Assembly: GCF_002854065.1 (NCBI RefSeq)
Contig: NZ_CP024147.1
From: Escherichia coli
GTDB lineage: Bacteria > Pseudomonadota > Gammaproteobacteria > Enterobacterales > Enterobacteriaceae
Direction: 5' to 3' (one strand)
DNA: 64,000 nucleotides
Below, in pieces: positions 1 to 52,400 of the stretch. Both the position numbers and the translations under genes were made by a program. The notes below the pieces were generated by a model. It did no database searches, was not told the DNA's origin, and saw nothing but the letters and a program-made list of their open reading frames with translations. The first letter of the stretch is position 1. Every line of letters starts with the position of its first letter.

Positions 1-889
1 TAATGACCAGTGAGCCACACACCATCACTCCGGCGGAAATGGCTGCGTAATCCTGCTGGCGGATGGCGTTAATTAACCAGCGCCCTAAACCCGGCCAGCT
101 AAAAACCATTTCGGTGATCATCGCCAGCGTCAGCATGGTGGAAAACTGTAAGCCCAGGCGAGGAATAACCGGCGGTAACGCGTTATGCAGAACGTGGCGA
201 CGCAAAATAGTAAAGCGCGACAAACCGCGTGTCGCCGCCGCTTTTACATAGTTCTGGTCATACACTTCGATAGTGCTGATACGCATCAGGCGGATCACTT
301 CAGTTGTTGGCGCAACCGACAGGGTGATCACGGGCAATATCATATGGCGGATTGCGCTCATGATCATTTCATCCCGCCATGGTGAGTCCGAAAGCCAGGC
401 ATCAATCAACGCAAAACCGGTAATCGGTTTCACTTCGTAGAGCAGATCGAAACGCCCTGAAACGGGCAACCAACCTAGCGTGAGTGAACAAAACAGTGTC
501 AATAGAAGCGCCAGCCAGAACACCGGGATTGAAAAGCCCAGTAAGGCGATGGCGTTGATCAAGTTATCCTGCCACTTATGGCGCGTAATCCCGGCAATCA
601 TCCCCACGGGGATGCCAACAATCAGCGCAAAACCGAAGGCGAGGATGCACAGTTCCATCGTCGCCGGGAAGACCTCTTTTAACTGTTCGGCAATTGGTTG
701 ACCGTTAATGCTGGAAACACCAAAATCCCAGTGGATCAGGCCATTAAACCAGAACACCCAAGCATTCCACAGTGACGCGCCTTGTAACGGCGCGTGTGGA
801 GTGAAATAGCTCAAGCTGAAGCCAACGAAGGTCAGCAGGAACAAGGTGACAATCAATAACAAAATGCGGCGTAAGGTGAAGATAATCAT
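1..889 (-). CDS. sapB: Peptide ABC transporter permease SapB; start codon at 889, C-terminal ~25 codons lie beyond the window start
   Basis: Reverse-strand translation from ATG at 889 gives [24 protein letters not shown]..., a hydrophobic permease I recognise as SapB; start overlaps sapA stop (operon arrangement). Confidence 0.85.
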
Positions 890-2529
890 GGTTTTTTCAC
901 CTCATCCTGTTTCTCGCGATACACCCCAGCAAAGGAGGCGTTACCAAACGGGCTAAGTACCAGACCTTTGATATCGTACCGATAGGCCTGCAAACGCAAT
1001 GACGACGCAAGCGGCAAAATGGGCAATTCCTGCGCCAGAATACTCTGCGCTTCGTCATAGGCTTCAATACGCGCCGCCAGCTGCTGCGAGGAGAGCGCCT
1101 TACGCAACACGCTGTCGAATTTCGGATCGCACCAGTGGGCGAGGTTGGTCTGTGAATGAATTGCCGCGCAGCTCAGTAACGGACGGAAGAAACTGTCCGG
1201 GTCGTTACTGTCCGTCGCCCAACCGGATAACGTCAGATCATGGCTCATATCCATCAACCGCGCCTCCTGAAAGCGACCTTCTATCGGCACAATCACCACT
1301 TTTACGCCAACCTGCGCCATATCCGCCTGAATCAGTTCGGCAGTTTTCAGTGGACTGGGGTTCCACGCCTGCGAACGTGTGGGCACCCACAGTTTCAGCG
1401 TTAAATTTTCCAGCCCCAACGACTTCAACTGTTCGCGCGATTTCGCCGGATTGTATTCAGTAATTTTAGCCTCGTTGTCATAGGCCCACGAGGCGCGCGG
1501 TAAAATAGAGGCCGCCGTTTCAGCCGTACCATAATAGATGGATTGCATCAGGCGCTGGTTATTAATCGCCAGTGCCAGCGCATGGCGGACAGCGGGATTA
1601 TTTAGCGGCGGTTTGGCGGTGTTAAATGCCAGATAGGCGACGTTCATCCCAGGACGCAGCGTTAAACGCAAGCGCGGGTCGTCACGCAAAATGGATAGCT
1701 GGCTGGCAGCAGGCCAGGCCAGAACGTCGCATTCACCAGTCAGGAGTTTCGACAGACGTCCGGTGCCGCCGGAGCCTAAATCCACCACTACCTGCGGCAT
1801 TAACGGTTTACCGCGCCAGAAGTCATCATGACGTTGTAGGCGAATAAATTGCCCGGCGCGGTATTCCGACAATTGATACGGACCGGTGCCGACCGGTTGA
1901 CGGTCGAGTTGCTCCTGGCGATCTTCTTTCTCTAACTTCCGGGCATATTCTGCCGACATGACCGAAGCATAATGGGTTGCGAGGTGCCACAAAAAAGAAG
2001 CATCCGGCTGGGCGAGTCGGAACTCAACGGTATGATTATCCAGTTTACGGACGCTTTTCACGTTATCGGCAAATTGCAGGCTGTCGAAGTAGGGGAAGTT
2101 GCTGCCGTTGACGTTATGCCACGGGTTGTTGCGGTCAAAAATTCGCTGGAAGGTAAACACCACATCGTCGGCATTCATTTTACGAGTGGGAGTAAACCAG
2201 TCGGTTTTTTGAAACGGAACATCGCGACGTAGGTGGAAGCGATAGGTCGCGCCGTTGTCGAGTACTTCCCAGCTTTCGGCAAGTTCTGGCATCAGGCGAT
2301 AGGTATAGGGATCGACATCCAGCAGTCGATCATAAAACTGGGCGGCAAGGGTATCGACAATTAACCCACTGCTCGCTTTGGATGGGTTAAAGGTGTTGAC
2401 TTGCCCGCTGACGCAATAGACAAAACCGCTGTCGCGGATATCAGCATGCGGGGGGGATTCAGGCGCGGCGATTGCCTGACCACTCACAAGTCCAGCAATC
2501 ACCAAAAGAGACGATAATACCTGGCGCAT
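886..2529 (-). CDS. sapA: Periplasmic peptide-binding protein SapA
   Basis: ORF track 547 aa with N-terminal signal peptide ([21 protein letters not shown]); length and sequence match my recall of K-12 SapA; sapB follows. Confidence 0.93.
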
Positions 2530-2840
2530 AATATTAAGGGATTTTATGTAAAGAGGCTATCTTACTAATATTTAATGACATTTGCCATTACCGTTTGTGT
2601 TCAGGGGTCGTAATGAGGGCCGTGTGGTTGGTCGTTGAACAGATGGCGTCGCCATCTGTTCAACATTCGTACCCGTGATTTCTCTATAACTATAACTCAC
2701 AGAACAACTTAGCGAGGAGCAGAGCGGTACGATCGTGAGAAACCCATTAAAGCACGCTGCAATGCGTGTCATTTTAACCGGATGCAGCGTGAACGCTTTA
2801 TCCGGGTAACGATACTGACCGATCGTCTGCAATTAAATAA

Positions 2841-3086
2841 TTACTCATTACCCCATTGATTCAAAAACTCTGCGATCTCATCAATGCGTACGGGATTAAT
2901 CCCCGCTTCAGCAGCCATTTCATGTTGGGCTTCTTCGCTGATCTCTTCATTGTTCATCAAACGGGTGAGCAGTAACTGGAAGTAGTGGGCCAGCGGTGTG
3001 CGTTCAGCCTCTGCGACAGGCTCTGCGCATTCGGTCGCGTACTCATCGGCAATATCAAAATATTTTAGCGGGATATCGTGGTTCAT
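2841..3086 (-). CDS. ymjA: Small conserved protein YmjA (DUF2543)
   Basis: ORF track 81 aa; position between sapA and puuP as in K-12; sequence recognised. Confidence 0.8.
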
Positions 3087-3171
3087 TATTTGCCCCTGGG
3101 GTTAATGCGCTAAGCATAAGGGCGGATGATAGCACTCGTGATCCGGGTCATACATCTTTTTATAGTTAATG

Positions 3172-3211
3172 GCGCGGCGCATTACCCTCAGGCAGGATAA
3201 TGCGCCGCGCA
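3172..3211 (-). terminator. Perfect 13-bp inverted repeat (gcgcggcgcatta / taatgcgccgcgc) just downstream of puuP stop; putative terminator
   Basis: Palindrome read directly; no strong U-tract follows, so terminator function is uncertain. Confidence 0.35.
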
Positions 3212-3219
3212 TCCGACTA

Positions 3220-4605
3220 TTACGTTTCGCTCACTGGCGTTCTGTCACCTTCGTACAGCGGCACTTTGCGATAGCGGCGGATCAGATACCACAAATATGC
3301 GCCGCCTAACGAAGCCCATACCAGACCGAGTGTCAGTGACGTTGACTCGAGGTTAACCCACAGCACACCCACCGTCAGCGCGCCAACCAGCGGCATCAGC
3401 AAATAGTGGAAGTGATCCTTCCAGCTTTTATTCATTCCTTTGCGCCGCCAGAAATGATTAAACACCGACAGATTCACGAAGGTAAACGCCACCAGAGCAC
3501 CGAAGTTAATTAACGCTGTGGCGGTAACTAAATCGAAGAACAGCGCCGACAACGCGACAATCCCGACCATAATGACGTTCAGTGCCGGAGTCCGCCATTT
3601 TGGGTGCACATAGCCAAACACGCGCTCCGGAAACACATTGTCACGCCCCATCACATACAGCAGACGCGACACGCTGGCATGTGAAGCCAGGCCAGAGGCT
3701 AACGTGTTCACAAACGTGGTGCAGAGGAAAATCGACTGGAAGAGCTTGCCGCCGACGTACAGCGCAATTTCAGGCAGTGCGGCGTCCGGGTCTTTAAAGC
3801 GGCTGATATCGGGGAAGAACAGCTGCATAAAGAACGACGCCGCGATAAAGATAACGCCACCATAGACCGCCGTCAGGAAGATGGCTTTCGGGATCACGCG
3901 TGCGGCGTCTGGTGTCTCTTCCGAAAGTGTGGTCACCGCATCGAAACCAAGGAAAGAGAAGCAGACGATCGTCGCCCCGGTAATAATCGGAATCAGATGC
4001 GCGTTCTCGCTGATAAACGGCTGAAGTGACCAGACGGTGCCAACGCCTTCTCCTTTATGCAGTCCCTGAACCACCAGGAAGATAAACACCACCATGATGG
4101 AGATTTGCACCAGTACAAACAGGGTATTGAAGTTAGCGACCAGGTTGACGCTCTTCAGATTCGCGGCGGTTAAAATGGCGACGAAGGTTACCACCCACAC
4201 CCACGGCGGCACTTCCGGGAAGAGGGCGGAGAGATAGATTTTCGCCAACAAAACGTTGATCATCGGCAAAAAGAGATAATCCAGCAGTGATGACCAGCCG
4301 ACCATAAATCCGACGTGCGGGTTAATCGACTTTTGCGCGTAGGTATAGGCCGAACCGGCCTCCGGAAACTGGCGAACCAGTTTGCCGTAGCTGATAGCGG
4401 TAAACAGCACGCCCGCCAGCGCCAGCAAATAGGACGCCGGAACGTGACCGTCGCTAATGCCGGAGACAATACCAAAAGTATCAAATACGGTCATCGGCGT
4501 GAGATAGGCCAGACCCATCATCACCACCTGCCACAATTTCAGTGATTTTCGCAGACGGGTTTTGCCGGGTTGCGCGGCAATATTCAGTGGTGAATTAATA
4601 GCCAT
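3220..4605 (-). CDS. puuP: Putrescine importer PuuP (amino acid/polyamine permease)
   Basis: ORF track 3220..4659; start trimmed to Met giving 461 aa ([12 protein letters not shown]...), the K-12 PuuP length; multi-pass membrane protein. Confidence 0.9.
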
Positions 4606-4907
4606 AATTGCTGCCTCCCCTGCGTAATAAGGTTTGCGGTCGTGTCGACCTGAAATCAAACCTGTTTAGCAAGGGAAGCAAAGGGGGCGGAGTCCAGTCA
4701 GTCGCAGGAGGGGCGCATACGCAGCCTCCCTCGCCATGCGGGGATTTAATCATCGGCATCATCTCATTTCCTCGTCACAGTCTTAATCGTTAACGGAAGC
4801 CCGTTGCCGCCTGCGCTCCATAACGCGACATCCGGGAAATGTCTGGATTACCAGCAAATGTCAGGCCTGGCTCCGCTCAGGCCGATGAAACAACCCCGCA
4901 AGGGGTA

Positions 4908-6308
4908 TTACGCGTTTTTCAACATCCACTCAATTTCTGTTTCTGTGATGAGGCGCTCAAACTGCAACAGCTCATCATTTTTACAGGCGTGATACACATG
5001 GCAAAACCGTTCGCCTAAATAGCGGCGCAGGTGATCATTCTCGATAAACTCACCCAGGGCATCGCTCTGGCGAATCGGGAAGGGTAAGCCATCCTGTTCC
5101 AGCCCGTTGCCTTCGACTTCTTCCTGCAACGGCAGCTCGTTATCAAGACCGTGCAAAATACCGGCAAAAATCGCTGCCATCACCAGATATGGGTTGGCAT
5201 CGGCACCCGCCACGCGATATTCCACGCGGTGATTATGGCGATCGCCGCATGGAATACGCAGGGCGACGGTACGGTTATTATGGCCCCACGACGCCTGCGT
5301 CGGTACATACATACCTGGCTGGAAGCGGCGATACGAGTTCACGTTTGGTGCCAGCAACGCCATTGATGACGGCATCAGGTCAATCATCCCGGCGAGCATC
5401 TTTTTCAGCAGCGGCGAATCTTCGCCTTCTGTGTCAGAAAGCACGTTCTCGCCACGATTATTTTGCATACTGATATGGATATGCATTCCGCTGCCCGCGT
5501 GCTCTTCATACGGCTTCGCCATAAAAGTGGCGTGCATCTTATGCTTTTCTGCCATCAGACGCACCAGGCGTTTTAGTGCCAGCGCATCATCGCAGGCTTC
5601 CAGCACGTTATCAGTATGGTAAAGGTTGATTTCAAACTGACCCGGCGAGGCCTCAGCGACCGCGCCATCTGCCGGAATCAGCTGTAACTGCGCCAGTTCA
5701 TCAATATCATTGAGCACGTCGGCGAAGTGGTTGAGGTTATCAACGGAGTAAACCTGGCTTTGTGTATTGCGGTCATCAGTGCCGGGCGCGCAGGGCGGTT
5801 GCAGATACCCTTCAGCGTCGCGCTGGCGATCCAGTAAATAGAACTCCAGCTCTACCGCTACGACCGGGAACAATCCGCGCTGGCGCAGCTGCTGCCACAG
5901 GCGGTTAAGAACGTTCCGCGGCTCAACGTCAAAGGGAGCGCCATCTTCATCGACCATGGTCAGGAGCATCTGACCGATAAACTCTGGATCGGCGGCAGAA
6001 GGGGTTAAGGAACCGAGAACAGGAACACAGGTACGATCCGGCTCGCCCATTTCCTGACCCAGACCTGCTTCTTCTACTACGTTGCCCAGAATATCCATTG
6101 CAAATACCGAGGCCGGGAAATAACACCCTTTCTCGAGCTTCTTCAGGCTTGAAACAGGAATACGTTTTCCACGGAAGCAACCATTCAAATCGGTAAGTAA
6201 AACATCAACATATTGCGTATTCGGGTAGCGCTCCAGGTAGCGTTTCACTTCCTGCGTAAAGGCGCTACCCCGCCTCTCTTCTGACTGCTGAACAAAGTTC
6301 TCTACTTC
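4908..6308 (-). pseudogene. puuA: Gamma-glutamylputrescine synthetase puuA, body of the gene, separated from its first 9 codons by IS1
   Basis: ORF track 4908..6248 (446 aa, glutamine-synthetase-like); in-frame upstream codons ...VENFVQQSEERRGSAFTQEVKRY run to the IS1 end at 6309; native N-terminus is on the other side of IS1. Confidence 0.85.
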
Positions 6309-6323
6309 GGTAATGACTCCAAC

Positions 6324-6827
6324 TTATTGATAGTGTTTTATGTTCAGATAATGCCCGATGACTTTGTCATGCAGCTCCACCGATTTTGAGAACGACAGCG
6401 ACTTCCGTCCCAGCCGTGCCAGGTGCTGCCTCAGATTCAGGTTATGCCGCTCAATTCGCTGCGTATATCGCTTGCTGATTACGTGCAGCTTTCCCTTCAG
6501 GCGGGATTCATACAGCGGCCAGCCATCCGTCATCCATATCACCACGTCAAAGGGTGACAGCAGGCTCATAAGACGCCCCAGCGTCGCCATAGTGCGTTCA
6601 CCGAATACGTGCGCAACAACCGTCTTCCGGAGCCTGTCATACGCGTAAAACAGCCAGCGCTGGCGCGATTTAGCCCCGACGTATCCCCACTGTTCGTCCA
6701 TTTCCGCGCAGACGATGACGTCACTGCCCGGCTGTATGCGCGAGGTTACCGACTGCGGCCTGAGTTTTTTAAATGGCGGAAAATCGTGTTGAGGCCAACG
6801 CCCATAATGCGGGCGGTTGCCCGGCAT
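6324..6827 (-). CDS. insB: IS1 InsB (expressed as InsAB-prime transposase by -1 frameshift)
   Basis: ORF track 167 aa recognised as IS1 InsB; overlaps insA in the -1 frame. Confidence 0.9.
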
Positions 6828-7021
6828 CCAACGCCATTCATGGCCATATCAATGATTTTCTGGTGCGTACCGGGTTGAGAAGCGGTGTAAGTGAACTGCA
6901 GTTGCCATGTTTTACGGCAGTGAGAGCAGAGATAGCGCTGATGTCCGGCAGTGCTTTTGCCGTTACGCACCACCCCGTCAGTAGCTGAACAGGAGGGACA
7001 GCTGATAGAAACAGAAGCCAC
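6746..7021 (-). CDS. insA: IS1 InsA
   Basis: ORF track 91 aa [43 protein letters not shown]... recognised as IS1 InsA. Confidence 0.92.
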
Positions 7022-7076
7022 TGGAGCACCTCAAAAACACCATCATACACTAAATCAGTAAGTTGGCAGCATCACC

Positions 7077-7103
7077 CTCTACTTCAACGATATTGGTTTC
7101 CAT
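7077..7103 (-). pseudogene. puuA: puuA 5-prime fragment: start codon plus first 9 codons (METNIVEVE) stranded upstream of IS1
   Basis: Reverse translation from ATG at 7103 gives METNIVEVE then the IS1 end; the same VE(N) codons resume at 6308, consistent with a 9-bp target duplication. Confidence 0.8.
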
Positions 7104-7314
7104 GATTCTTCGCCTTTGGTTTGTTTTCCGCTCGTTATCAAAGCGTAAAATATAATGACCACCATTCGAATCTGTATGCAAACTAAATGTTTGTCAAATG
7201 TTAAATTGAGTTTGCAAAAATGAAAACTCACTGCTAGATTGAAAAAATATTGAACATAAAGGTCATTTAAACCGCAGTAATGGCGATAATTTAGTCCACT
7301 TTGTGAGATTGAGC
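7104..7314. promoter_or_regulatory. puuA / puuD divergent control region with two similar A/T-rich motifs (AAAATATAATGACC 7147-7160; AAAAATATTGAACATA 7243-7258); candidate PuuR operators
   Basis: Motifs read directly; assignment to PuuR is inference from location only. Confidence 0.3.
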
Positions 7315-8079
7315 ATGGAAAATATAATGAACAATCCGGTTATCGGTGTCGTAATGTGCAGGAACAGGCTTAAGGGTCATGCGACCCAGACTCTGCAAGA
7401 AAAGTACCTGAATGCCATCATCCATGCAGGCGGCTTGCCAATTGCGCTGCCACATGCGCTGGCGGAACCGTCGTTACTTGAACAACTTTTGCCGAAACTC
7501 GATGGCATTTACCTTCCTGGTAGTCCCAGCAATGTGCAGCCGCACCTATATGGTGAAAACGGCGATGAGCCTGACGCCGATCCCGGGCGTGATCTTCTGA
7601 GCATGGCGTTAATTAATGCCGCACTCGAAAGGCGCATCCCCATTTTCGCCATCTGCCGGGGTTTACAGGAACTGGTGGTGGCAACCGGTGGTTCGTTGCA
7701 TCGCAAGCTGTGCGAACAGCCTGAATTGCTGGAACATCGGGAAGATCCCGAACTGCCGGTGGAACAGCAATATGCACCGTCGCATGAAGTTCAGGTTGAA
7801 GAGGGGGGATTGCTGTCTGCGTTGTTACCTGAATGTAGCAACTTTTGGGTAAACTCTCTGCATGGACAAGGGGCAAAGGTCGTTAGCCCACGGTTGCGTG
7901 TTGAAGCTCGCTCGCCGGATGGCTTAGTTGAGGCGGTTAGCGTCATCAATCATCCTTTTGCGCTGGGCGTACAGTGGCACCCGGAATGGAACAGTAGCGA
8001 GTACGCGCTTTCGCGTATATTGTTCGAGGGCTTTATCACCGCTTGTCAGCACCATATCGCTGAAAAACAGCGACTCTGA
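7315..8079 (+). CDS. puuD: Gamma-glutamyl-GABA hydrolase PuuD (class I glutamine amidotransferase-like)
   Basis: ORF track 7303..8079; start trimmed to MENIMNNPVIG giving 254 aa, the K-12 length. Confidence 0.9.
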   Translation: MENIMNNPVIGVVMCRNRLKGHATQTLQEKYLNAIIHAGGLPIALPHALAEPSLLEQLLPKLDGIYLPGSPSNVQPHLYGENGDEPDADPGRDLLSMALINAALERRIPIFAICRGLQELVVATGGSLHRKLCEQPELLEHREDPELPVEQQYAPSHEVQVEEGGLLSALLPECSNFWVNSLHGQGAKVVSPRLRVEARSPDGLVEAVSVINHPFALGVQWHPEWNSSEYALSRILFEGFITACQHHIAEKQRL

Positions 8080-8105
8080 CCACTACAGTTTAAGGAAATG
8101 CAAAT

Positions 8106-8663
8106 ATGAGTGATGAGGGACTGGCGCCAGGAAAACGCTTGTCGGAAATCCGCCAGCAGCAGGGGCTTTCACAACGTCGTGCCGCCGAACTCTCCGGGCT
8201 GACTCACAGTGCTATCAGTACGATAGAACAAGATAAAGTCAGCCCTGCCATCAGTACGCTGCAAAAGCTGCTGAAGGTGTATGGTCTGTCACTCTCGGAA
8301 TTCTTTTCCGAGCCGGAAAAACCTGATGAGCCGCAGGTCGTCATTAATCAGGACGATTTAATTGAGATGGGCAATCAGGGTGTGTCAATGAAGCTGGTTC
8401 ATAACGGTAAGCCGAATCGCACGCTGGCGATGATCTTTGAAACGTACCAGCCGGGCACAACCACTGGGGAAAGAATTAAGCATCAGGGTGAGGAAATAGG
8501 CACTGTACTGGAAGGTGAAATTGTTCTGACGATTAATGGTCAGGATTACCACCTCGTCGCGGGGCAAAGTTATGCCATTAATACCGGCATCCCGCACAGT
8601 TTCAGTAATACGTCGGCAGGTATTTGCCGAATTATCAGCGCCCATACGCCCACCACGTTTTAA
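8106..8663 (+). CDS. puuR: HTH-cupin transcriptional repressor PuuR
   Basis: ORF track 185 aa; XRE-type HTH (LSQRRAAELSGLTHSAISTIE) plus C-terminal cupin; synteny. Confidence 0.9.
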   Translation: MSDEGLAPGKRLSEIRQQQGLSQRRAAELSGLTHSAISTIEQDKVSPAISTLQKLLKVYGLSLSEFFSEPEKPDEPQVVINQDDLIEMGNQGVSMKLVHNGKPNRTLAMIFETYQPGTTTGERIKHQGEEIGTVLEGEIVLTINGQDYHLVAGQSYAINTGIPHSFSNTSAGICRIISAHTPTTF

Positions 8664-8812
8664 TCTTTTTGTTCTGTAAGCCGGGTAAGCGCAATGCGCC
8701 CGGCAATCCATAAAGAATGTCGCCAGAAATAAACGGGCATACGGCCCGGGGATCTCTGCGCCCTGACGTTCACAAACTGCATATATCTGATAGACGTGAA
8801 ACAGGAGTCATA

Positions 8813-10300
8813 ATGAATTTTCATCATCTGGCTTACTGGCAGGATAAAGCGTTAAGTCTCGCCATTGAAACCCGCTTATTTATTAACGGTGAATATACTG
8901 CTGCGGCGGAAAATGAAACCTTCGAAACATCCGATCCGGTTACCCAGGCACCGCTGGCGAAAATTGCCCGCGGCAAGAGCGTCGATATCGACCGTGCGGT
9001 GAGCGCAGCACGCGGCGTATTTGAACGCGGCGACTGGTCACTCTCTTCTCCGGCTAAACGTAAAGCGGTACTGAATAAACTCGCCGATTTAATGGAAGCC
9101 AACGCCGAAGAGCTGGCACTGCTGGAAACTCTCGACACCGGCAAACCGATTCGTCACAGTCTGCGTGATGATATTCCCGGCGCGGCGCGCGCCATTCGCT
9201 GGTACGCCGAAGCGATCGACAAAGTGTATGGCGAAGTGGCGACCACCAGTAGCCATGAGCTGGCGATGATCGTGCGTGAACCGGTCGGCGTAATTGCCGC
9301 CATCGTGCCGTGGAACTTCCCGCTGCTGCTGACTTGCTGGAAACTCGGCCCGGCGCTGGCGGCGGGAAACAGCGTGATTCTAAAACCGTCTGAAAAATCA
9401 CCGCTCAGTGCGATTCGTCTCGCCGGGCTGGCGAAAGAAGCAGGTCTGCCGGATGGCGTACTGAACGTAGTAACGGGTTTTGGTCATGAAGCGGGGCAGG
9501 CGCTGTCGCGTCATAACGATATCGATGCCATCGCCTTTACCGGTTCAACCCGTACCGGGAAACAGCTGCTGAAAGATGCGGGCGACAGCAACATGAAACG
9601 CGTCTGGCTGGAAGCGGGCGGCAAAAGCGCCAACATCGTTTTCGCTGACTGCCCGGATTTGCAACAGGCGGCAAGCGCCACCGCAGCAGGCATCTTCTAC
9701 AACCAGGGTCAGGTGTGCATCGCCGGAACGCGCCTGTTGCTGGAAGAGAGCATAGCTGATGAATTCTTAGCCCTGTTAAAACAGCAGGCGCAAAACTGGC
9801 AGCCGGGCCATCCACTTGATCCCGCAACCACCATGGGCACCTTAATCGACTGCGCCCACGCCGACTCGGTCCATAGCTTTATTCGGGAAGGCGAAAGCAA
9901 AGGGCAACTGTTGTTGGATGGCCGTAACGCCGGGCTGGCTGCCGCCATCGGCCCGACCATCTTTGTGGATGTAGACCCGAATGCGTCCTTAAGCCGCGAA
10001 GAGATTTTCGGTCCGGTGCTGGTTGTCACGCGTTTCACATCAGAAGAACAGGCGCTACAGCTTGCCAACGACAGCCAGTACGGCCTTGGCGCGGCGGTAT
10101 GGACGCGCGACCTCTCCCGCGCGCACCGCCTGAGCCGACGCCTGAAAGCCGGTTCCGTCTTCGTCAATAACTACAACGACGGCGATATGACCGTGCCGTT
10201 TGGCGGCTATAAGCAGAGCGGCAACGGTCGCGACAAATCCCTGCATGCCCTTGAAAAATTCACCGAACTGAAAACCATCTGGATAAGCCTGGAGGCCTGA
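8813..10300 (+). CDS. puuC: Gamma-glutamyl-gamma-aminobutyraldehyde dehydrogenase PuuC
   Basis: ORF track 8717..10300; start trimmed to MNFHHLAYWQDKA (495 aa); aldehyde dehydrogenase family. Confidence 0.9.
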   Translation: MNFHHLAYWQDKALSLAIETRLFINGEYTAAAENETFETSDPVTQAPLAKIARGKSVDIDRAVSAARGVFERGDWSLSSPAKRKAVLNKLADLMEANAEELALLETLDTGKPIRHSLRDDIPGAARAIRWYAEAIDKVYGEVATTSSHELAMIVREPVGVIAAIVPWNFPLLLTCWKLGPALAAGNSVILKPSEKSPLSAIRLAGLAKEAGLPDGVLNVVTGFGHEAGQALSRHNDIDAIAFTGSTRTGKQLLKDAGDSNMKRVWLEAGGKSANIVFADCPDLQQAASATAAGIFYNQGQVCIAGTRLLLEESIADEFLALLKQQAQNWQPGHPLDPATTMGTLIDCAHADSVHSFIREGESKGQLLLDGRNAGLAAAIGPTIFVDVDPNASLSREEIFGPVLVVTRFTSEEQALQLANDSQYGLGAAVWTRDLSRAHRLSRRLKAGSVFVNNYNDGDMTVPFGGYKQSGNGRDKSLHALEKFTELKTIWISLEA

Positions 10301-13015: not shown

Positions 13016-13993
13016 CTAAATCTGGTGCTTTTTCAACAACGCGCGGAACTGATGATAGGTTAACCCCAGTAATTCAGCCGCGCGCTTCTGGTTATATTTC
13101 CCTTGTTGCAAACTGAGTTGCAGCAACTCTTTTTCCTGCTGCATCTGAAACTCACGTAAATCCAGCGGCAGTGTTGGAAGCGAGGTGGTTTCTGAAACGG
13201 CGATAGCGTCTTCAGGCGGACGCCGTTTAAAGGGATCAATAATGATGTCATCAAGCGGATAATCGCTGGTGCCGTGGCGATACACTGAACGTTCCACCAC
13301 GTTTTTCAATTCACGAATATTTCCCGGCCAGCGATAATTCAGCAATGTTTCTCTGGCGCGCTCCGTAAACCCCGGGAACAGAGGCAGCTTGATTTCCCGA
13401 CACATCTGAATGGCAAAGTGTTCTGCCATCAGCATAATGTCGCTTTCGCGCTCGCGCAGGGGCGGCAGTTGCACAACATCAAAAGCCAGGCGGTCGAGCA
13501 GGTCAGCGCGAAAAGTACCTTCATTGACCATCGCCGGGAGATCGGCATTCGTCGCGCATACCAACCGCACATTCACCTGCAACGGCTGGCTGCCGCCAAC
13601 GCGCTCCAGTTCACCGTACTCAATCACGCGCAATAATTTTTCCTGTACCATCATCGGTGCTGTAGCGAGTTCATCAAGAAATAGCGTACCGCCGTCGGCA
13701 CGTTCAAATCTTCCTGGATGACGTTTTTGCGCACCGGTAAACGCCCCCGCTTCGTGACCAAACAGTTCGGAATCCAGCAGATTTTCATTTAACGCCGCGC
13801 AGTTAAGGGAAATAAACGGCCCTTGCCAACGGGAGGAGAGATAATGCAGGCGGCTGGCGATCAGCTCTTTACCGGTGCCGCGCTCGCCGATGATGAGCAC
13901 AGGTTTGTCCAGCGGCGCGAGATGCGAAACCTGTTCCAGCACTTCGAGAAAGCTGTTCGCCTCACCGAGTAAATTATCTTTGTATTCTGCCAT
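13016..13993 (-). CDS. pspF: Sigma-54 enhancer-binding activator PspF
   Basis: ORF track 13016..14008; start trimmed to MAEYKDNLLGE (325 aa); AAA+ sigma-54 interaction domain (GERGTGKE) and C-terminal HTH. Confidence 0.92.
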   Translation of the reverse strand: MAEYKDNLLGEANSFLEVLEQVSHLAPLDKPVLIIGERGTGKELIASRLHYLSSRWQGPFISLNCAALNENLLDSELFGHEAGAFTGAQKRHPGRFERADGGTLFLDELATAPMMVQEKLLRVIEYGELERVGGSQPLQVNVRLVCATNADLPAMVNEGTFRADLLDRLAFDVVQLPPLRERESDIMLMAEHFAIQMCREIKLPLFPGFTERARETLLNYRWPGNIRELKNVVERSVYRHGTSDYPLDDIIIDPFKRRPPEDAIAVSETTSLPTLPLDLREFQMQQEKELLQLSLQQGKYNQKRAAELLGLTYHQFRALLKKHQI

Positions 13994-14087: not shown

Positions 14088-14828
<741 letters not shown>

Positions 14829-14881: not shown

Positions 14882-15106
14882 ATGAGCGCGCTATTTCTGG
14901 CTATTCCATTAACCATTTTTGTGCTGTTTGTTTTACCGATCTGGTTATGGCTGCATTACAGCAATCGTTCTGGTCGCAGTGAATTGTCGCAAAGTGAGCA
15001 GCAGCGATTAGCGCAACTGGCTGATGAAGCAAAACGGATGCGCGAACGTATTCAGGCGCTGGAATCTATTCTTGATGCAGAACATCCGAACTGGAGGGAT
15101 CGCTAA
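14882..15106 (+). CDS. pspB: Phage shock protein B
   Basis: ORF track 74 aa, single TM helix; synteny. Confidence 0.9.
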   Translation: MSALFLAIPLTIFVLFVLPIWLWLHYSNRSGRSELSQSEQQRLAQLADEAKRMRERIQALESILDAEHPNWRDR

Positions 15107-15465
15107 TGGCGGGCATTAATCTCAATAAAAAATTATGGCGTATTCCACAGCAGGGCATGGTCCGTGGCGTCTGCGCCGGGATTGCCAACTATTTTGATGT
15201 ACCGGTAAAACTGGTGCGTATCCTGGTGGTGCTGTCGATTTTCTTCGGTCTGGCGCTGTTTACCCTGGTTGCTTACATCATTTTGTCATTTGCGCTTGAT
15301 CCAATTCCGGACAACATGGCCTTTGGTGAGCAGCTACCTTCCAGCAGCGAATTGCTGGATGAAGTCGACCGTGAACTGGCGGCAAGTGAAACGCGTTTAC
15401 GCGAGATGGAACGTTATGTCACTTCCGATACTTTCACGTTACGTAGCCGTTTCCGTCAACTGTGA
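15106..15465 (+). CDS. pspC: Phage shock protein C
   Basis: ORF track 119 aa; start overlaps pspB stop; TM protein. Confidence 0.9.
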
Positions 15466-15473
15466 GGAAAGTT

Positions 15474-15695
15474 ATGAATACTCGCTGGCAACAGGCCGGG
15501 CAAAAGGTGAAGCCTGGTTTCAAATTAGCAGGCAAGCTGGTACTTCTTACCGCACTGCGCTATGGCCCGGCGGGTGTGGCGGGCTGGGCGATAAAATCAG
15601 TTGCTCGCCGACCGCTGAAAATGTTGCTGGCTGTGGCGCTGGAACCGCTGTTAAGTCGGGCTGCTAATAAACTGGCACAGCGTTATAAAAGGTGA
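15474..15695 (+). CDS. pspD: Phage shock protein D
   Basis: ORF track 15462..15695; start trimmed to MNTRWQQAG (73 aa). Confidence 0.85.
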
Positions 15696-15769
15696 GGGGA
15701 GTTTCGCAAAAATTGTTAAATCTCAGGCCTATAATGGATGGCAATTTTCATCCATAGAAGGACGCTTAC

Positions 15770-16084
15770 ATGTTTAAAAAAGGCTTACTTGCTCTGGCAC
15801 TGGTGTTTTCACTGCCCGTTTTTGCCGCTGAACACTGGATCGATGTTCGTGTTCCAGAGCAGTATCAGCAAGAGCACGTTCAGGGGGCCATCAATATTCC
15901 CCTGAAGGAAGTGAAAGAGCGCATTGCCACCGCCGTTCCCGATAAAAACGACACCGTGAAAGTGTATTGCAATGCCGGACGCCAGTCAGGGCAGGCAAAA
16001 GAGATCCTTAGCGAGATGGGATATACCCACGTTGAGAACGCCGGTGGCCTGAAAGACATCGCAATGCCGAAGGTCAAAGGTTAA
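15770..16084 (+). CDS. pspE: Periplasmic rhodanese PspE (thiosulfate sulfurtransferase)
   Basis: ORF track 104 aa with signal peptide and rhodanese active-site Cys (VYCNAGRQS). Confidence 0.9.
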   Translation: MFKKGLLALALVFSLPVFAAEHWIDVRVPEQYQQEHVQGAINIPLKEVKERIATAVPDKNDTVKVYCNAGRQSGQAKEILSEMGYTHVENAGGLKDIAMPKVKG

Positions 16085-16101
16085 CAAATTACTTATTGAG
16101 C

Positions 16102-16131
16102 GGTGTAAACAACGCCGCTTATTCATTTGAT
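16102..16131 (+). terminator. Putative terminator after pspE (agcggtgtaaacaacgccgct then T-rich tail)
   Basis: Imperfect hairpin with G-U pair followed by TATTCATTTG; read directly. Confidence 0.4.
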
Positions 16132-16202
16132 AAATCAAAATTAACCCACATTATTATCTCCAGTATCTAATCCTTTCTACAGCTTTCTGGCACAGGACAG
16201 CA

Positions 16203-17600
16203 ATGAAGCGACTTAAAAATGAACTTAATGCGCTGGTGAATCGGGGTGTCGACAGACATCTGCGCCTCGCCGTAACCGGACTTAGCCGCAGCGGCAAAAC
16301 GGCGTTTATCACTGCGATGGTCAATCAGTTGCTCAATATTCACGCCGGAGCACGCTTGCCGCTGTTAAGCGCGGTGCGTGAAGAACGGCTGCTGGGCGTA
16401 AAACGCATTCCCCAGCGTGACTTTGGCATTCCGCGCTTCACCTATGATGAAGGGCTGGCGCAGTTATATGGCGATCCACCTGCCTGGCCAACGCCAACGC
16501 GCGGCGTCAGCGAAATTCGCCTGGCGCTACGTTTTAAATCGAACGATTCGCTGCTACGCCACTTTAAGGATACCTCCACGCTGTATCTGGAGATTGTGGA
16601 TTATCCCGGCGAATGGTTGCTCGACCTGCCGATGCTGGCGCAGGACTATTTAAGCTGGTCGCGCCAGATGACGGGCTTACTTAATGGTCAGCGCGGCGAA
16701 TGGTCGGCGAAATGGCGAATGATGTGCGAAGGGCTGGACCCGCTAGCGCCTGCCGACGAAAACCGGCTGGCAGACATTGCCGCCGCGTGGACCGATTATC
16801 TCCACCACTGTAAACAGCAGGGGCTGCACTTTATTCAGCCTGGGCGCTTTGTCTTGCCGGGGGATATGGCAGGTGCGCCCGCGCTGCAATTCTTCCCGTG
16901 GCCGGATGTCGATGCCTGGGGCGAGTCCAAACTCGCGCAGGCCGATAAGCACACCAATGCCGGAATGCTGCGCGAGCGGTTTAATTATTACTGCGAGAAA
17001 GTGGTGAAGGGGTTCTATAAGAATCATTTTCTGCGCTTTGACCGCCAGATTGTGCTGGTGGATTGCCTGCAACCTCTCAACAGTGGGCCACAGGCATTTA
17101 ATGATATGCGTCTGGCGCTGACGCAGCTGATGCAAAGTTTCCACTATGGGCAGCGTACCCTGTTCAGGCGTTTGTTTTCGCCGGTTATCGATAAGCTATT
17201 GTTTGCTGCCACTAAAGCGGACCATGTGACCATCGATCAGCACGCCAATATGGTTTCATTGCTGCAACAACTAATTCAGGATGCCTGGCAAAATGCGGCG
17301 TTCGAAGGGATCAGCATGGATTGCCTGGGGCTGGCGTCAGTTCAGGCGACCACCAGTGGCATTATTGATGTTAACGGTGAGAAAATCCCGGCGCTGCGCG
17401 GTAATCGACTTAGCGATGGCGCACCGCTCACTGTTTATCCTGGCGAAGTTCCCGCACGTTTGCCTGGTCAGGCGTTCTGGGATAAGCAAGGCTTCCAGTT
17501 TGAGGCATTTCGTCCGCAGGTGATGGATGTCGACAAACCACTACCGCATATTCGTCTTGATGCTGCGCTGGAATTTTTAATAGGAGATAAATTGCGATGA
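16203..17600 (+). CDS. ycjX: Uncharacterised P-loop NTPase YcjX (DUF463)
   Basis: ORF track 465 aa; Walker [10 protein letters not shown]; sequence recognised as YcjX. Confidence 0.9.
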
Positions 17601-18658: not shown

Positions 18659-18717
18659 TACAATATCGGGTGCTGACCGGATATCTTTACGCCGAAGTGC
18701 CCGTTTTTCCGTCTTTG

Positions 18718-18805: not shown

Positions 18806-20347
18806 ATGCGTCTGGAAGTCTTTTGTGAAGACCGACTTGGTCTGACCCGCGAATTACTCGATCTACTCGTGCTAAGAGGCATTGATTTACGCGGTATTGA
18901 GATTGACCCCATTGGGCGAATCTACCTCAATTTTGCTGAACTGGAGTTTGAGAGTTTCAGCAGTCTGATGGCCGAAATACGCCGTATTGCAGGTGTTACC
19001 GATGTGCGTACTGTCCCGTGGATGCCTTCCGAACGTGAGCATCTGGCGTTGAGCGCGTTACTGGAGGCGTTGCCCGAACCTGTGCTCTCTGTCGATATGA
19101 AAAGCAAAGTGGATATGGCGAATCCGGCGAGCTGTCAGCTTTTTGGGCAAAAATTGGATCGCCTGCGCAACCATACCGCCGCACAATTGATTAACGGCTT
19201 TAATTTTTTACGTTGGCTGGAAAGCGAACCGCAAGATTCGCATAACGAGCATGTCGTTATTAATGGGCAGAATTTCCTGATGGAGATTACGCCTGTTTAT
19301 CTTCAGGATGAAAATGATCAACACGTTCTGACCGGTGCGGTGGTGATGTTGCGATCAACGATTCGTATGGGCCGCCAGTTGCAAAATGTCGCCGCCCAGG
19401 ACGTCAGCGCCTTCAGTCAAATTGTCGCCGTCAGCCCGAAAATGAAGCACGTTGTCGAACAGGCGCAGAAACTGGCGATGCTAAGCGCGCCGCTGCTGAT
19501 TACGGGTGACACAGGTACAGGTAAAGATCTCTTTGCCTACGCCTGCCATCAGGCAAGCCCCAGAGCAGGCAAACCTTACCTGGCGCTGAACTGTGCGTCT
19601 ATACCAGAAGATGCGGTCGAGAGTGAACTGTTTGGTCATGCTCCGGAAGGGAAGAAAGGATTCTTTGAGCAGGCGAACGGTGGTTCGGTGCTGTTGGATG
19701 AAATAGGGGAAATGTCACCACGGATGCAGGCGAAATTACTGCGTTTCCTTAATGATGGCACTTTCCGTCGGGTTGGCGAAGACCATGAGGTGCATGTCGA
19801 TGTGCGGGTGATTTGCGCTACGCAGAAGAATCTGGTCGAACTGGTGCAAAAAGGCGTGTTCCGTGAAGATCTCTATTATCGTCTGAACGTGTTGACGCTT
19901 AATCTGCCGCCGCTACGTGACTGTCCGCAGGACATCATGCCGTTAACCGAGCTGTTCGTTGCCCGCTTTGCCGACGAGCAGGGCGTGCCGCGTCCGAAAC
20001 TGGCCGCTGACCTGAATACTGTACTTACGCGTTATGCGTGGCCGGGAAATGTGCGGCAGTTAAAGAACGCTATCTATCGCGCACTGACACAACTGGACGG
20101 CTATGAGCTGCGTCCTCAGGATATTTTGTTGCCGGATTATGACGCCGCAACGGTAGCCGTGGGCGAAGATGCGATGGAAGGTTCGCTGGACGAAATTACC
20201 AGCCGTTTTGAACGCTCGGTATTAACCCAGCTTTATCGCAATTATCCCAGCACGCGCAAACTGGCAAAACGTCTCGGCGTTTCACATACCGCGATTGCCA
20301 ATAAGTTGCGGGAATATGGTCTGAGTCAGAAGAAGAACGAAGAGTAA
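18806..20347 (+). CDS. tyrR: Aromatic amino acid regulator TyrR
   Basis: ORF track 18779..20347; start trimmed to MRLEVFCEDRLGL (513 aa); ACT-PAS-AAA+-HTH architecture. Confidence 0.93.
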   Translation: MRLEVFCEDRLGLTRELLDLLVLRGIDLRGIEIDPIGRIYLNFAELEFESFSSLMAEIRRIAGVTDVRTVPWMPSEREHLALSALLEALPEPVLSVDMKSKVDMANPASCQLFGQKLDRLRNHTAAQLINGFNFLRWLESEPQDSHNEHVVINGQNFLMEITPVYLQDENDQHVLTGAVVMLRSTIRMGRQLQNVAAQDVSAFSQIVAVSPKMKHVVEQAQKLAMLSAPLLITGDTGTGKDLFAYACHQASPRAGKPYLALNCASIPEDAVESELFGHAPEGKKGFFEQANGGSVLLDEIGEMSPRMQAKLLRFLNDGTFRRVGEDHEVHVDVRVICATQKNLVELVQKGVFREDLYYRLNVLTLNLPPLRDCPQDIMPLTELFVARFADEQGVPRPKLAADLNTVLTRYAWPGNVRQLKNAIYRALTQLDGYELRPQDILLPDYDAATVAVGEDAMEGSLDEITSRFERSVLTQLYRNYPSTRKLAKRLGVSHTAIANKLREYGLSQKKNEE

Positions 20348-32747: not shown

Positions 32748-32802
32748 GGTGATGCTGCCAACTTACTGATTTAGTGTATGATGGTGTTTTTGAGGTGCTC
32801 CA

Positions 32803-33078
32803 GTGGCTTCTGTTTCTATCAGCTGTCCCTCCTGTTCAGCTACTGACGGGGTGGTGCGTAACGGCAAAAGCACTGCCGGACATCAGCGCTATCTCTGCTC
32901 TCACTGCCGTAAAACATGGCAACTGCAGTTCACTTACACCGCTTCTCAACCCGGTACGCACCAGAAAATCATTGATATGGCCATGAATGGCGTTGGATGC
33001 CGGGCAACCGCCCGCATTATGGGCGTTGGCCTCAACACGATTTTCCGCCATTTAAAAAACTCAGGCCGCAGTCGGTAA
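32803..33078 (+). CDS. insA: IS1 InsA
   Basis: ORF track 91 aa, same protein as copy 1. Confidence 0.92.
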
Positions 33079-33500
33079 CCTCGCGCATACAGCCGGGCAG
33101 TGACGTCATCGTCTGCGCGGAAATGGACGAACAGTGGGGATACGTCGGGGCTAAATCGCGCCAGCGCTGGCTGTTTTACGCGTATGACAGGCTCCGGAAG
33201 ACGGTTGTTGCGCACGTATTCGGTGAACGCACTATGGCGACGCTGGGGCGTCTTATGAGCCTGCTGTCACCCTTTGACGTGGTGATATGGATGACGGATG
33301 GCTGGCCGCTGTATGAATCCCGCCTGAAGGGAAAGCTGCACGTAATCAGCAAGCGATATACGCAGCGAATTGAGCGGCATAACCTGAATCTGAGGCAGCA
33401 CCTGGCACGGCTGGGACGGAAGTCGCTGTCGTTCTCAAAATCGGTGGAGCTGCATGACAAAGTCATCGGGCATTATCTGAACATAAAACACTATCAATAA
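32997..33500 (+). CDS. insB: IS1 InsB
   Basis: ORF track 167 aa, same protein as copy 1. Confidence 0.9.
33054..33060 (+). promoter_or_regulatory. IS1 A6C slippery motif (AAAAAAC) for programmed -1 frameshift producing InsAB-prime
   Basis: Motif read directly in the insA/insB overlap; mechanism is established IS1 biology. Equivalent motif is present in copies 1 and 3. Confidence 0.6.
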
Positions 33501-33515
33501 GTTGGAGTCATTACC

Positions 33516-49408: not shown

Positions 49409-52400
49409 ATGCAAAGGAAAAAATTATTGTCTGTTTGTGTTGCCATGGCGTTAAGTAGCCAGACATGGGCTGCGGATACTTCAATACCCGACTCAACCGA
49501 AAAAACACGTAAGTCCAGTAAGATAACATGTCCGGCAAATATTCATTCCCTGAGCAAAGAGCAGCTAGAAAATTTATCCGCGGAGTGCAGAGAAAATAAA
49601 GATAGTGCAGTTTTACCATGGGCAGCTGCAGGTCTTGCTGCAGTAGCTACGGGAATTGCTATATATACCTTAAGTGACGATGACAATCACCACCATAATA
49701 ACTCCCCAGTTCCGGATGATGGCGGTGATACGCCAGTTCCGCCAGACGACGGCGGTGATACGCCGGTTCCGCCAGATGACGGCGGTGATACGCCGGTTCC
49801 GCCAGATGACGGCGGTGATACGCCAGTTCCGCCAGATGACGGCGGTGATACGCCAGTTCCGCCAGATGACGGCGATGATACGCCGGTTCCGCCAGATGAC
49901 GGCGGTGATACGCCAGTTCCGCCAGATGACGGCGGTGATACGCCAGTTCCGCCAGATGACGGCGGTGATACGCCGGTTCCACCAGATGATGGCGGTGATA
50001 CGCCAGTTCCAGACGACGGCGGTGATACGCCTGTTCCGCCAGACGATGGTGGCGATACCCCGGTTAAACACGATCCTGTCGTCTATAAAAATGACGTAAC
50101 CTGGGATCAGGACGCGAAAACCGTCAAAATTCGCGAAACCACCTTTACCTACAGCCAAAATGCCGATGGGAGTTACACCTTAACCGCGCCTGATGGCCTG
50201 ACGACGATAGTCAAGGGCTGGACAGTCCATGACGACAGCAACACCGTCATCTTTGATGGCGTAAATACGGCAGGTGGCATCACCTGGAGCTACGACGATG
50301 ATGGGCTCATCCATATCACTAAAGAGGCCGGTGTCGTTGTTGATGGCACAACCGGAACTGCGATTGATTTTGGTAATGCGATCATCACCGATCAGGGCGG
50401 CAATACGGCGCTGAATGGCGGTACTGTCATGACGGTTGAGGGTGACAACATCACCCTCAACAACGACGGTAAAACGACCGCCATCGGCGAGGGTTCGGTC
50501 GTTGGTATCCTTACTGGTGACGATATCACTATCAATAACAACGGCGAGACGGAAGTTGACGGCGGTACCGCAGTAATCATCAATGGCGATAATGCTACGC
50601 TGAACACTGCGGGCGACTCGACCATCACCAATGGTGGTACGGGTAGCCTTATCAATGGCGATAATGCGCGGGTCGATAATCAAGGTACCATGAGCGTTGA
50701 CGGTGAGAATTCCACTGGCTCGAAAATTGTCGGTGACGGTGCCACCATCAAACAGGAAGGCGACTTATACGTAAGCGGTGGTGCGCACGGTATTGACGTT
50801 GACGGCAATGATACGTTCGTTAGCAACAAAGGTAATATTACGGTCATCGAAGATAACTCTATTGGCATGCTGCTTGATGGTGATGGCGTCAGCGTGATCA
50901 ACATGGGCGACCTCAATGTTGGTCAGGCCGCAGCGGGTGAAAATGCCATTGGCATTCAGATCGACGGTGATAATGCGACATTTGTTAACGTTGGTGATAT
51001 TTCCGCGACCAATGCCGGAACCGGTGTCAGCGTTGCTGGGGATAAAGCTAATATTTCACTCGCGGGTGGGTTAGACGTTGGGGATTTCTCCACCGGTCTT
51101 GATGTCTCTGGCAATAATAACAACATGACGCTGGCGACTTATGAGCTGAATGTGACAGGGCAAAAAGCGACGGGTGTTAATGTTTCGGGTGATGGCAATA
51201 CGATTGAAATCGCAGGCAGCATTCTGGTTGATAAAGATCAGAAAGCCGATAATGCGCAACCTTACTTCTTTAATCCCTCAACCGGCGTAAATATCAGCGG
51301 TAATAACAATGACGTCACGCTGGATGGTCAGTTAACCGTTGTTGCTGATAGCGAAACCACTACGCGTTCCTATGCAAGTTACGACGGTGCTCAGGAGCAC
51401 ATTGCGGGTATTGTTATTGCTGGCGATGACAATACCTTCACGCTTAATGGCGGTGTCCATTTTGTCGGTGAAAAAAATGTCATGGATGATGGCTCAAAAC
51501 CTGCCGCATCTCGTCGTGGTATCGGAGATACACCGCTTATGAGCGTTGATGGGCATTCCTCAGTCTACCTCAATGGTGAGTCAACCATCAGCGGTGAGTT
51601 CCCGCTGGGTTTCGAAAATCTCATTCAACTGAGTAATGGCGCGGAGCTGGAGATTGGCGCTGACGCAACGTTTGATATGAGTGATGTGGATTCTTTCACT
51701 TATTATTATCGTGTAGCGTTATCCACTATTAGTATTGATTATGGTGCGAAGGCGACAAACAACGGTGAAGTGGAACTGAAAAATATCGGTTTTGCGGCTG
51801 CCTGGAATAAAGATTCAACGGTAATCAATAACGGATCCATTGGCCTGGCGATGTACGATTTTGGTACCGACCCGGCACCAAAAGTCTTTGACGTTGAATA
51901 CGGTGGGATTGGCGTTAACAATGGTACCATGACCACCAAAATGATGAATCAGCACAGTGTGCTGAATTATCCGGCAGAGTGGAACTTGTCTGATGGTACC
52001 TCTTTCAATAACAAGGCATTAGGGCTGACAGGTATGCTTGCCAGCTACTCGTCATCCATTCTGAACGGCGAAACGGGCATTATTGATATGTATGGCCGTG
52101 GCAGTGTAGGGATGCTAGCCATCGATAAATCAACCGCGGATAACGAAGGGCAAATCACCCTGGATACGCTGTGGGTTGATGAAAATGATGAAACATCGCT
52201 GCGTAATAATGTTGCAAATAGCACGGCGAAAGATTTCGGTGTGGGAATGGCTTCAGGTACCGATGCCTATAATGGGGCATTAACTAAAGCCACGGCAACC
52301 AACCACGAGAATGGTGTGATTACTGTCTACAACGCCGGTGCGGGGATGGCGGCGTATGGGAATACTAATACGGTCATTAACCAGGGAACCATCAACCTGG

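Follow-up and report, generated by a model that had tools for sequence, protein, structure and literature searches.

The window, by which we mean the whole stretch of 64,000 nucleotides of Escherichia coli DNA that was analysed, appears to carry an uninterrupted, ancestral-type psp-ycjXF allele, and the 14.1-kb ycjM-ycjW/ompG block that separates pspE from ycjX in K-12 would be a derived, single insertion. We put the probability of this reading at about 85%. The order proposed for the ancestral-type allele is pspE with its own terminator-like hairpin, a putative ycjX promoter region, and then ycjX-ycjF-tyrR. The block would have entered once, in an event common to all the block-bearing E. coli sampled. 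It would have been placed between the pspE terminator and the ycjX promoter, where it would now be bounded by strongly diverged remnants of the spacer.

In the window pspE and ycjX lie on the same strand. The distance from the pspE stop to the ycjX start is 118 bp, exactly as the earlier note on this DNA had measured it (16085-16202) and close to the ~120 bp expected of an empty site. Strain 100416, which is 100% identical, supplied the gene coordinates through its RefSeq annotation (window position = locus position + 8999), and the names pspE and ycjX are confirmed by the RefSeq annotation of near-identical genomes. The features are listed below. The genes rest on open reading frames and RefSeq annotation, which is that of strain 100416 for pspF, pspA, pspB, pspC, pspD and ycjF; strands are given where they apply.

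13016-13993, minus strand: pspF, activator of the psp operon
14160-14828, plus strand: pspA
14882-15106, plus strand: pspB
15106-15465, plus strand: pspC
15474-15695, plus strand: pspD
15770-16084, plus strand: pspE, thiosulfate sulfurtransferase (rhodanese), 104 aa
16085-16202: pspE-ycjX spacer, 118 bp, the uninterrupted 'empty-site' allele (372 genomes and outgroup orthology)
16085-16189: allele-specific part of the spacer; block-bearing strains have nothing that matches it at the identity usual within E. coli
16097-16121, plus strand: terminator-like hairpin 3' of pspE (pattern scan and folding energy)
16127-16152, plus strand: promoter-like element upstream of ycjX, TTGATAA (16127-16133) and CCCACATT (16145-16152)
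16190-16202, plus strand: last 13 nt before the ycjX ATG, GCACAGGACAGCA, common to both alleles (alignment with K-12)
16203-17600, plus strand: ycjX, P-loop NTPase family, 465 aa
17597-18658, plus strand: ycjF
18806-20347: tyrR, 3' of ycjF

Antisense reading frames that run across the spacer (50-58 aa) were set aside as products of a mechanical ORF listing, lying within or opposite pspE and ycjX. An Rfam scan of positions 15650-16350 at E <= 1 returned no family match, hence no known sRNA or riboswitch there.

The K-12 gene order that the earlier note had described, with about 14 kb of ycj/ompG genes between pspE and ycjX, is borne out by the K-12-type O16:H48 genome NZ_CP043183 (L001), in which the pspE stop lies at 18685, the ycjX start at 32799 and 14,113 bp between them. 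This interval holds ycjM, N, O, P, Q, R, S and T, pgmB (ycjU), a frameshifted ycjV, ompG and the divergently oriented ycjW. The products of the K-12 block are glucosylglycerate and kojibiose phosphorylases, an ABC transporter, dehydrogenases/epimerase, a beta-phosphoglucomutase, OmpG and the LacI-type repressor YcjW. Decay of the block is seen in further strains as well as in K-12 itself with its ycjV: O157 180-PT54 (L091) has a frameshifted ycjM and an internal stop in ycjN, and O111:H8 08-4347 (L092) has internal stops in ycjM and ycjT.

When the K-12 locus was compared with the whole 64-kb window by BLAST, the flanks matched at 97.4-99.0% identity and no block sequence was found anywhere in the window. 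By this comparison homology ends at 16103 and resumes at 16190; aligned base by base, the two sequences diverge from 16085, the first base after the pspE stop. The earlier note had proposed an alignment of the junction as the way to locate the breakpoints, and we made it with six block-bearing strains (K-12, O157, O111:H8, the B2 strain Seattle 1946, 31B22CPO057 and WP4-W18). All six have one common junction architecture: they leave the window sequence after the pspE stop and rejoin it at 16190, so that 105 nt in the window (16085-16189) stand against ~14.1 kb in the block-bearing strains. The shared junction sequences point to one insertion event.

These 105 nt bear directly on the possibility that the window allele arose from a K-12-type locus by a clean, scarless deletion of the block, through short direct repeats or illegitimate recombination. 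Such a deletion would leave a junction made only of K-12 left-end and right-end sequence, and what was found instead is 105 nt with no significant K-12 match. Local alignment of the 86-bp stretch left unmatched by BLAST against both K-12 intergenic regions (pspE-ycjM and ycjW-ycjX) gave no significant similarity, with 80/500 and 141/500 shuffled controls scoring equally well. There is no IS at the junction, as a clean deletion would have it, and K-12 does carry an 11-nt direct repeat, TTTTTTTTCTG, just inside both block ends (L001 18719-18729 and 32763-32773) that could support one. However, recombination at this repeat would give a 69-nt spacer of K-12 sequence, not one of 118 nt. The repeat is also a low-complexity T-run no longer than shuffled controls can yield (maximum 12); it is located where a target duplication would sit, and it is probably due to chance. 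We therefore consider a clean deletion very improbable, all the more because the 105 nt without a K-12 counterpart do match the outgroups Escherichia albertii and SCPM-O-B-8794.

What is left of the spacer in K-12 can be compared only loosely with that of the window. Against the window spacer the K-12 remnants (L001 18686-18897 and 32644-32785) score ~59% identity, a level on a par with the 54-56% of Citrobacter spacers. In a gapped global alignment the terminator part of the remnants reaches a z-score of 3.6 and the promoter part 2.7, values that weakly suggest homology to the ancestral spacer, and we therefore claim no exact insertion coordinates inside it. Just two short, functional-looking pieces are common to both alleles: a GC-rich hairpin after pspE, and TTGATAA…CCC(C)ACATT ~50-75 nt before ycjX.

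The polarity of the change comes from the outgroups. We surveyed 80 YcjX loci from GTDB species representatives, which reached 10 kb upstream of ycjX, and mapped the Psp and Ycj proteins onto them. In nearly all the Enterobacterales among them psp genes lie directly upstream of ycjX, an arrangement also seen in Photobacterium, Grimontia, Salinivibrio, Aliivibrio and Aeromonas. In E. albertii (L003) a 120-bp spacer separates pspE from ycjX; in the divergent Escherichia SCPM-O-B-8794 (L004), which is recorded as E. coli, this spacer is 118 bp long. The whole window spacer aligns to the first at 85.8% and to the second at 90.7% identity, in line with flanks that diverge from the window by 9-11% in E. 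albertii and 7-11% in SCPM-O-B-8794. The spacer has thus diverged in step with its flanks and would have been inherited together with them. Since pspE and ycjX of these two outgroups are not near-identical to those of E. coli, the likeness of the spacers does not come from recent transfer out of E. coli.

Deletion within a K-12-type locus could not recreate 105 nt that match E. albertii, which makes the window allele the ancestral-type one and the block a derived insertion. Judged from the sequences of the two alleles, the empty form cannot be obtained from the block form by deletion. The earlier note had left ancestral absence and clean deletion side by side: the first stands as a statement on the allele, through its outgroup-orthologous spacer, and the second falls on the 105 nt that lack a K-12 counterpart.

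A further way to lose the block is deletion mediated by an IS that was itself lost afterwards. IS1 is active in the source genome, with three copies in the window, and it did remove the block elsewhere: in strain F637 (L100, NZ_OY754389.1, 2170-3445) the order is pspE, IS1B, a 288-nt ycjW stump and ycjX, which is an independent, IS1B-mediated secondary loss of the whole block. Taking F637 as the positive control, we looked for an IS copy or IS end and for truncated neighbours at the window junction. Neither was found: pspE, the hairpin and ycjX are intact, repeat searches at the junction gave chance-level matches of 8-19 nt only, and there is no block remnant. The closest IS1 lies 9 kb off, at 6309-7076. 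The earlier note's observation that no IS or repeat marks the junction, and its view that no recent IS event is involved, agree with these results. The spacer is moreover orthologous to the outgroup spacers, and precise excision of IS1 is not known to restore an ancestral spacer after a 14-kb deletion. An IS-mediated deletion can hence be given almost no weight.

The three IS1 copies deserve a brief description of their own. The first is complete (768 bp, with insA/insB on the minus strand) and is flanked by a 9-bp target duplication, CTCTACTTC, at 6300-6308 and 7077-7085. Seen against K-12, the insertion point lies ~20 nt into the 5' end of puuA (glutamate-putrescine ligase), a gene that is probably inactivated as a result. 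The second, at 32748-33515, is 100% identical to the first, and there the window is without 5.8 kb of strain 100416 (most of dgcM, smrA, an MFS/HlyD efflux pair, an AraC regulator and abgR/abgT remnants), in what looks like an IS1-associated deletion. The third, at 57716-58483, is 99.9% identical; around it the window keeps ~12.3 kb (49659-61925) where 100416 has a single IS1 instead. The two genomes thus differ by IS1-mediated rearrangements in both directions. Comparison of window positions 19501-64000 with the locus L101 also showed that there is no Rac prophage between ttcA and dbpA, and that the abg operon is present in this strain background as fragments only, beside ogt. On the other side of the psp genes, K-12 is ~122 bp longer between puuR and puuC (window 8710-8712 against L001 11199-11322), in what may be a REP-type element, and in Seattle 1946 (L093, positions 1-2500) the whole puu cluster between ymjA and pspF is gone except for a puuP fragment.

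E. coli as a species is polymorphic for the two alleles, with ~7% of genomes empty and ~93% carrying the block. In a survey of 5,426 complete genomes the 118-bp spacer was found in 372, once per genome and always at >=99% identity (0 or 1 difference). The 14-kb block was matched in 5,051 genomes, and 4,943 of these have nearly the whole block in one place. The flanks are present in 5,423, which is also the sum of spacer and block genomes. It follows that a genome has, in essence, either one allele or the other, which speaks against relocation of the block in genomes that carry the spacer. Relocation was the alternative that the earlier note had held against its own claim of absence; with no block or block remnant in the 64-kb window, and absence from the rest of the genome inferred from the counts, absence is the better description. 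An assembly artefact, in which the block was collapsed or dropped, would have to recur at the same junction in 372 independent complete genomes, among them the enteroaggregative reference strain 042 (NC_017626.1), and is about as improbable as any explanation considered here.

Strain 042, which we take to belong to phylogroup D, is thus a carrier of the empty allele, and IAI39, presumably of phylogroup F, carries the block. Against the 372 genomes that have the spacer, 378 have contiguous flanks when 1.5 kb is compared and 407 when 6.5 kb is compared, which suggests that some genomes, a few dozen by these counts, shortened the block independently. We found no paper on a pspE-ycjX presence/absence polymorphism in the literature searched. 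The finding itself is known biology: it is an ordinary accessory-genome polymorphism, can be seen in annotated public genomes, and fits the psp-ycjXF synteny already published.

The ancestral type is a property of the allele, and the window's own lineage may have come by it in more than one way. Neighbour-joining trees were built from the flanks of sampled carriers and block-bearing strains, and thus are trees of this locus. Most of the sampled carriers form one flank haplotype group, beside block-bearing strains from the B2/D/F side; it includes 042, A1_136, RIVM_C037884, MS1685, an O7:H15 'ST70' strain, VCSW7 and a capsule-mutant lab strain. (VCSW7 is a soil isolate, L089, whose ycjX, at 4619-6016, has an internal stop.) In the left-flank tree, made from pspF-pspE, the window groups instead with 100416, YZMc3-1 and the block-bearing K-12, O111 and O157 strains. 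The close relatives of the window are 100416, CUWW06 and GDSC2227PM; YZMc3-1 is 100% identical to it over 1.5 kb and only 98.1% over 6.5 kb.

One explanation for this placement is that an ancestor of the window had the block and that the short spacer was swapped in by homologous recombination with an empty-allele E. coli, e.g. one of the 042 group. Besides the clustering of the window, 100416 and YZMc3-1 with block-bearing strains, it would account for a spacer that is 100% identical to those of 042 and MS1685. It would also account for identity to MS1685 that is confined to 15941-16270, with ~4% divergence on both sides, as for a short imported patch. The near identity of all 372 spacers, which differ by at most 1 nt while the adjacent genes differ by up to 4%, points the same way. 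Yet in a conserved region chance alone can produce 330 bp of identity, and the flanks are mosaic everywhere: WP4-W18, which has the block, and MS1685, which is empty, share the same flank SNPs, and the 5' part of the window's ycjX is almost identical to that of the block-bearing 31B22CPO057. How similar the flanks are is thus a poor guide to the history of the insertion or deletion. We regard this replacement as a reasonable possibility, though we lean against it. If it did take place, the sequence would still be the ancestral-type allele, and the absence of the block would be secondary for the window's lineage.

The empty allele would thus either have been kept in this lineage or been regained by homologous recombination from an empty-allele donor. 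Mosaic flanks around a near-invariant spacer fit an exchange of alleles between lineages by recombination. At the level of the population, so little variation in the spacer would be easier to reconcile with a recent horizontal spread of the empty allele than with its vertical retention from far back.

The insertion that we favour for the block also has a history beyond E. coli. The block adjoins ycjX in two Enterobacter, in Superficieibacter and in Siccibacter, and the Enterobacter with the block have no pspE at all. In Citrobacter sp. FP75 (L030) and C. werkmanii (L058) the block lies upstream of pspE (… ompG, ycjW, pspE, ycjX, at about 300-9850), and C. youngae has the empty arrangement. These differing orders indicate that block and pspE were placed at the locus in an order that varies between genera, and the patchy occurrence of the block in the four genera shows that it is old in the family. 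One ancient insertion may have been followed by many losses, or the block may have been transferred repeatedly by way of homology in the flanks.

Within E. coli the identity of the block to that of K-12 runs from 100% down to ~95% in B2-like strains, and between phylogroups it has diverged as much as core genes or more (95-98%). The block is accordingly of long standing in E. coli as well. At this level of divergence the E. coli ancestor may already have carried the block, in which case the empty allele may be a long-lived polymorphism or an import.

The K-12 block does not look like a site-specific island. No integrase, IS or tRNA is annotated in it, and our search of its ends for att-like repeats returned only the 11-nt T-run; accordingly an integrase or transposase, a tRNA/att target and significant direct repeats are all missing from the K-12 block. 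Its GC content is 51.0%, against 53.8-53.9% in the flanks. The most economical reading would be that the block came in, or was exchanged, through homologous recombination within the conserved flanks on the psp and ycjX sides.

The spacer that the block would have interrupted has recognizable elements. In the hairpin 3' of pspE a 10-bp stem carries a loop of 5 nt, with UUAUUCAUUU after it; the structure passes a terminator pattern scan. Its folding energy is -14.7 kcal/mol (z = -4.2), and no shuffled sequence out of 200 reached this stability. In E. albertii a change of U.G to C-G preserves the stem. It is on these grounds a predicted terminator. The U-tract that follows it (UUAUUCAUUU) is interrupted, and some read-through from pspE is therefore plausible.

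Downstream of the hairpin, TTGATAA is invariant in an alignment of Escherichia, Citrobacter and Phytobacter, and it stays near-invariant when block-bearing E. coli and Enterobacter are added; CCCACATT too is retained in block-bearing E. coli and in other genera. Sigma-32 promoters have as their consensus a CTTGAAA-like -35 element and a CCCCATNT-like -10 element, spaced by 13-15 nt. TTGATAA with CCCACATT resembles this consensus; a pattern scan flagged a sigma-70-like match as well (TTGATA-16-CATTAT), and either sigma factor could be a candidate for the element. The spacing from TTGATAA to CCCACATT is ~3 nt shorter in the window than in K-12. A sigma-32 promoter has been reported for ycjX (PMC3041696).

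In K-12, YcjW represses the ycjM-V/ompG operon, and loss of YcjW raises pspE mRNA (PMC6599011). The window strain would be without the YcjW repressor, the kojibiose and glucosylglycerate catabolic genes and the OmpG porin, and with no ycjW the control of pspE by YcjW cannot exist in it. The ycjXF genes would come to lie close enough to the psp operon to be reached by read-through, as they do in Yersinia.

A bolder proposal, and one that we hold to be rather unlikely as a whole, is that in the ~7% of E. coli that are block-free ycjXF is re-coupled to the PspF/sigma-54 psp system through read-through of a weak terminator, that pspE is free of the control by YcjW on which the 'emergency H2S' circuit described in K-12 depends, and that the empty allele may be spreading by short-patch recombination. 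Recent spread of this kind, if true, would mean that some niches select against the block.

For the description of the species, the result corrects a view centred on K-12: the ycj/ompG block would be the insertion, and the adjacency of pspE and ycjX the original order. Results obtained in K-12 on OmpG, on kojibiose and glucosylglycerate catabolism and on the YcjW-PspE H2S link would not be transferable to the ~7% of E. coli, including 042, that have the empty allele. For annotation pipelines, comparison with outgroup spacers offers a way to tell an ancestral empty site from a deletion. Beyond such bookkeeping the pspE-ycjX empty site itself matters little.

Three E. coli arrangements are useful for comparison. 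At the K-12 locus the flanking genes are ~98% identical to those of the window, the PspE proteins are identical (WP_000473109.1), the 13 nt that directly precede the ycjX ATG do not differ, and the TTGATAA and CCCACATT motifs are recognizable upstream of ycjX. The difference lies in 14.1 kb that K-12 has in addition; the window is without the block, and its spacer is unrelated or highly diverged. In F637 pspE and ycjX are likewise brought close and the ycj/ompG genes are gone, but its junctions are of the K-12 type and it has an IS1B copy and a 288-nt ycjW stump, all three of which are missing from the window. Strain 042 and the 371 other carriers have the same 118-bp spacer (>=99%; 100% in 042) and the same gene order as the window, and differ from it by flanking genes ~2-4% apart that belong to another haplotype group.

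The wider comparison is with the psp-ycjXF loci of the Enterobacterales, for which the linkage and the pspABCD-ycjXF operon of Yersinia have been described (PMC3041696, PMC3467454, PMC9239133). Yersinia has no pspE, which in the window lies between pspD and ycjX. The window spacer also differs from the Yersinia operon in having a stable hairpin and a separate promoter-like motif, and co-transcription of psp and ycjX as in Yersinia is therefore not assured. The plan of the locus is nevertheless the same in Yersinia enterocolitica (pspABCD-ycjXF), in E. albertii (pspABCDE-ycjXF) and in the window, with psp followed by ycjX-ycjF(-tyrR) on the same strand across a short spacer.
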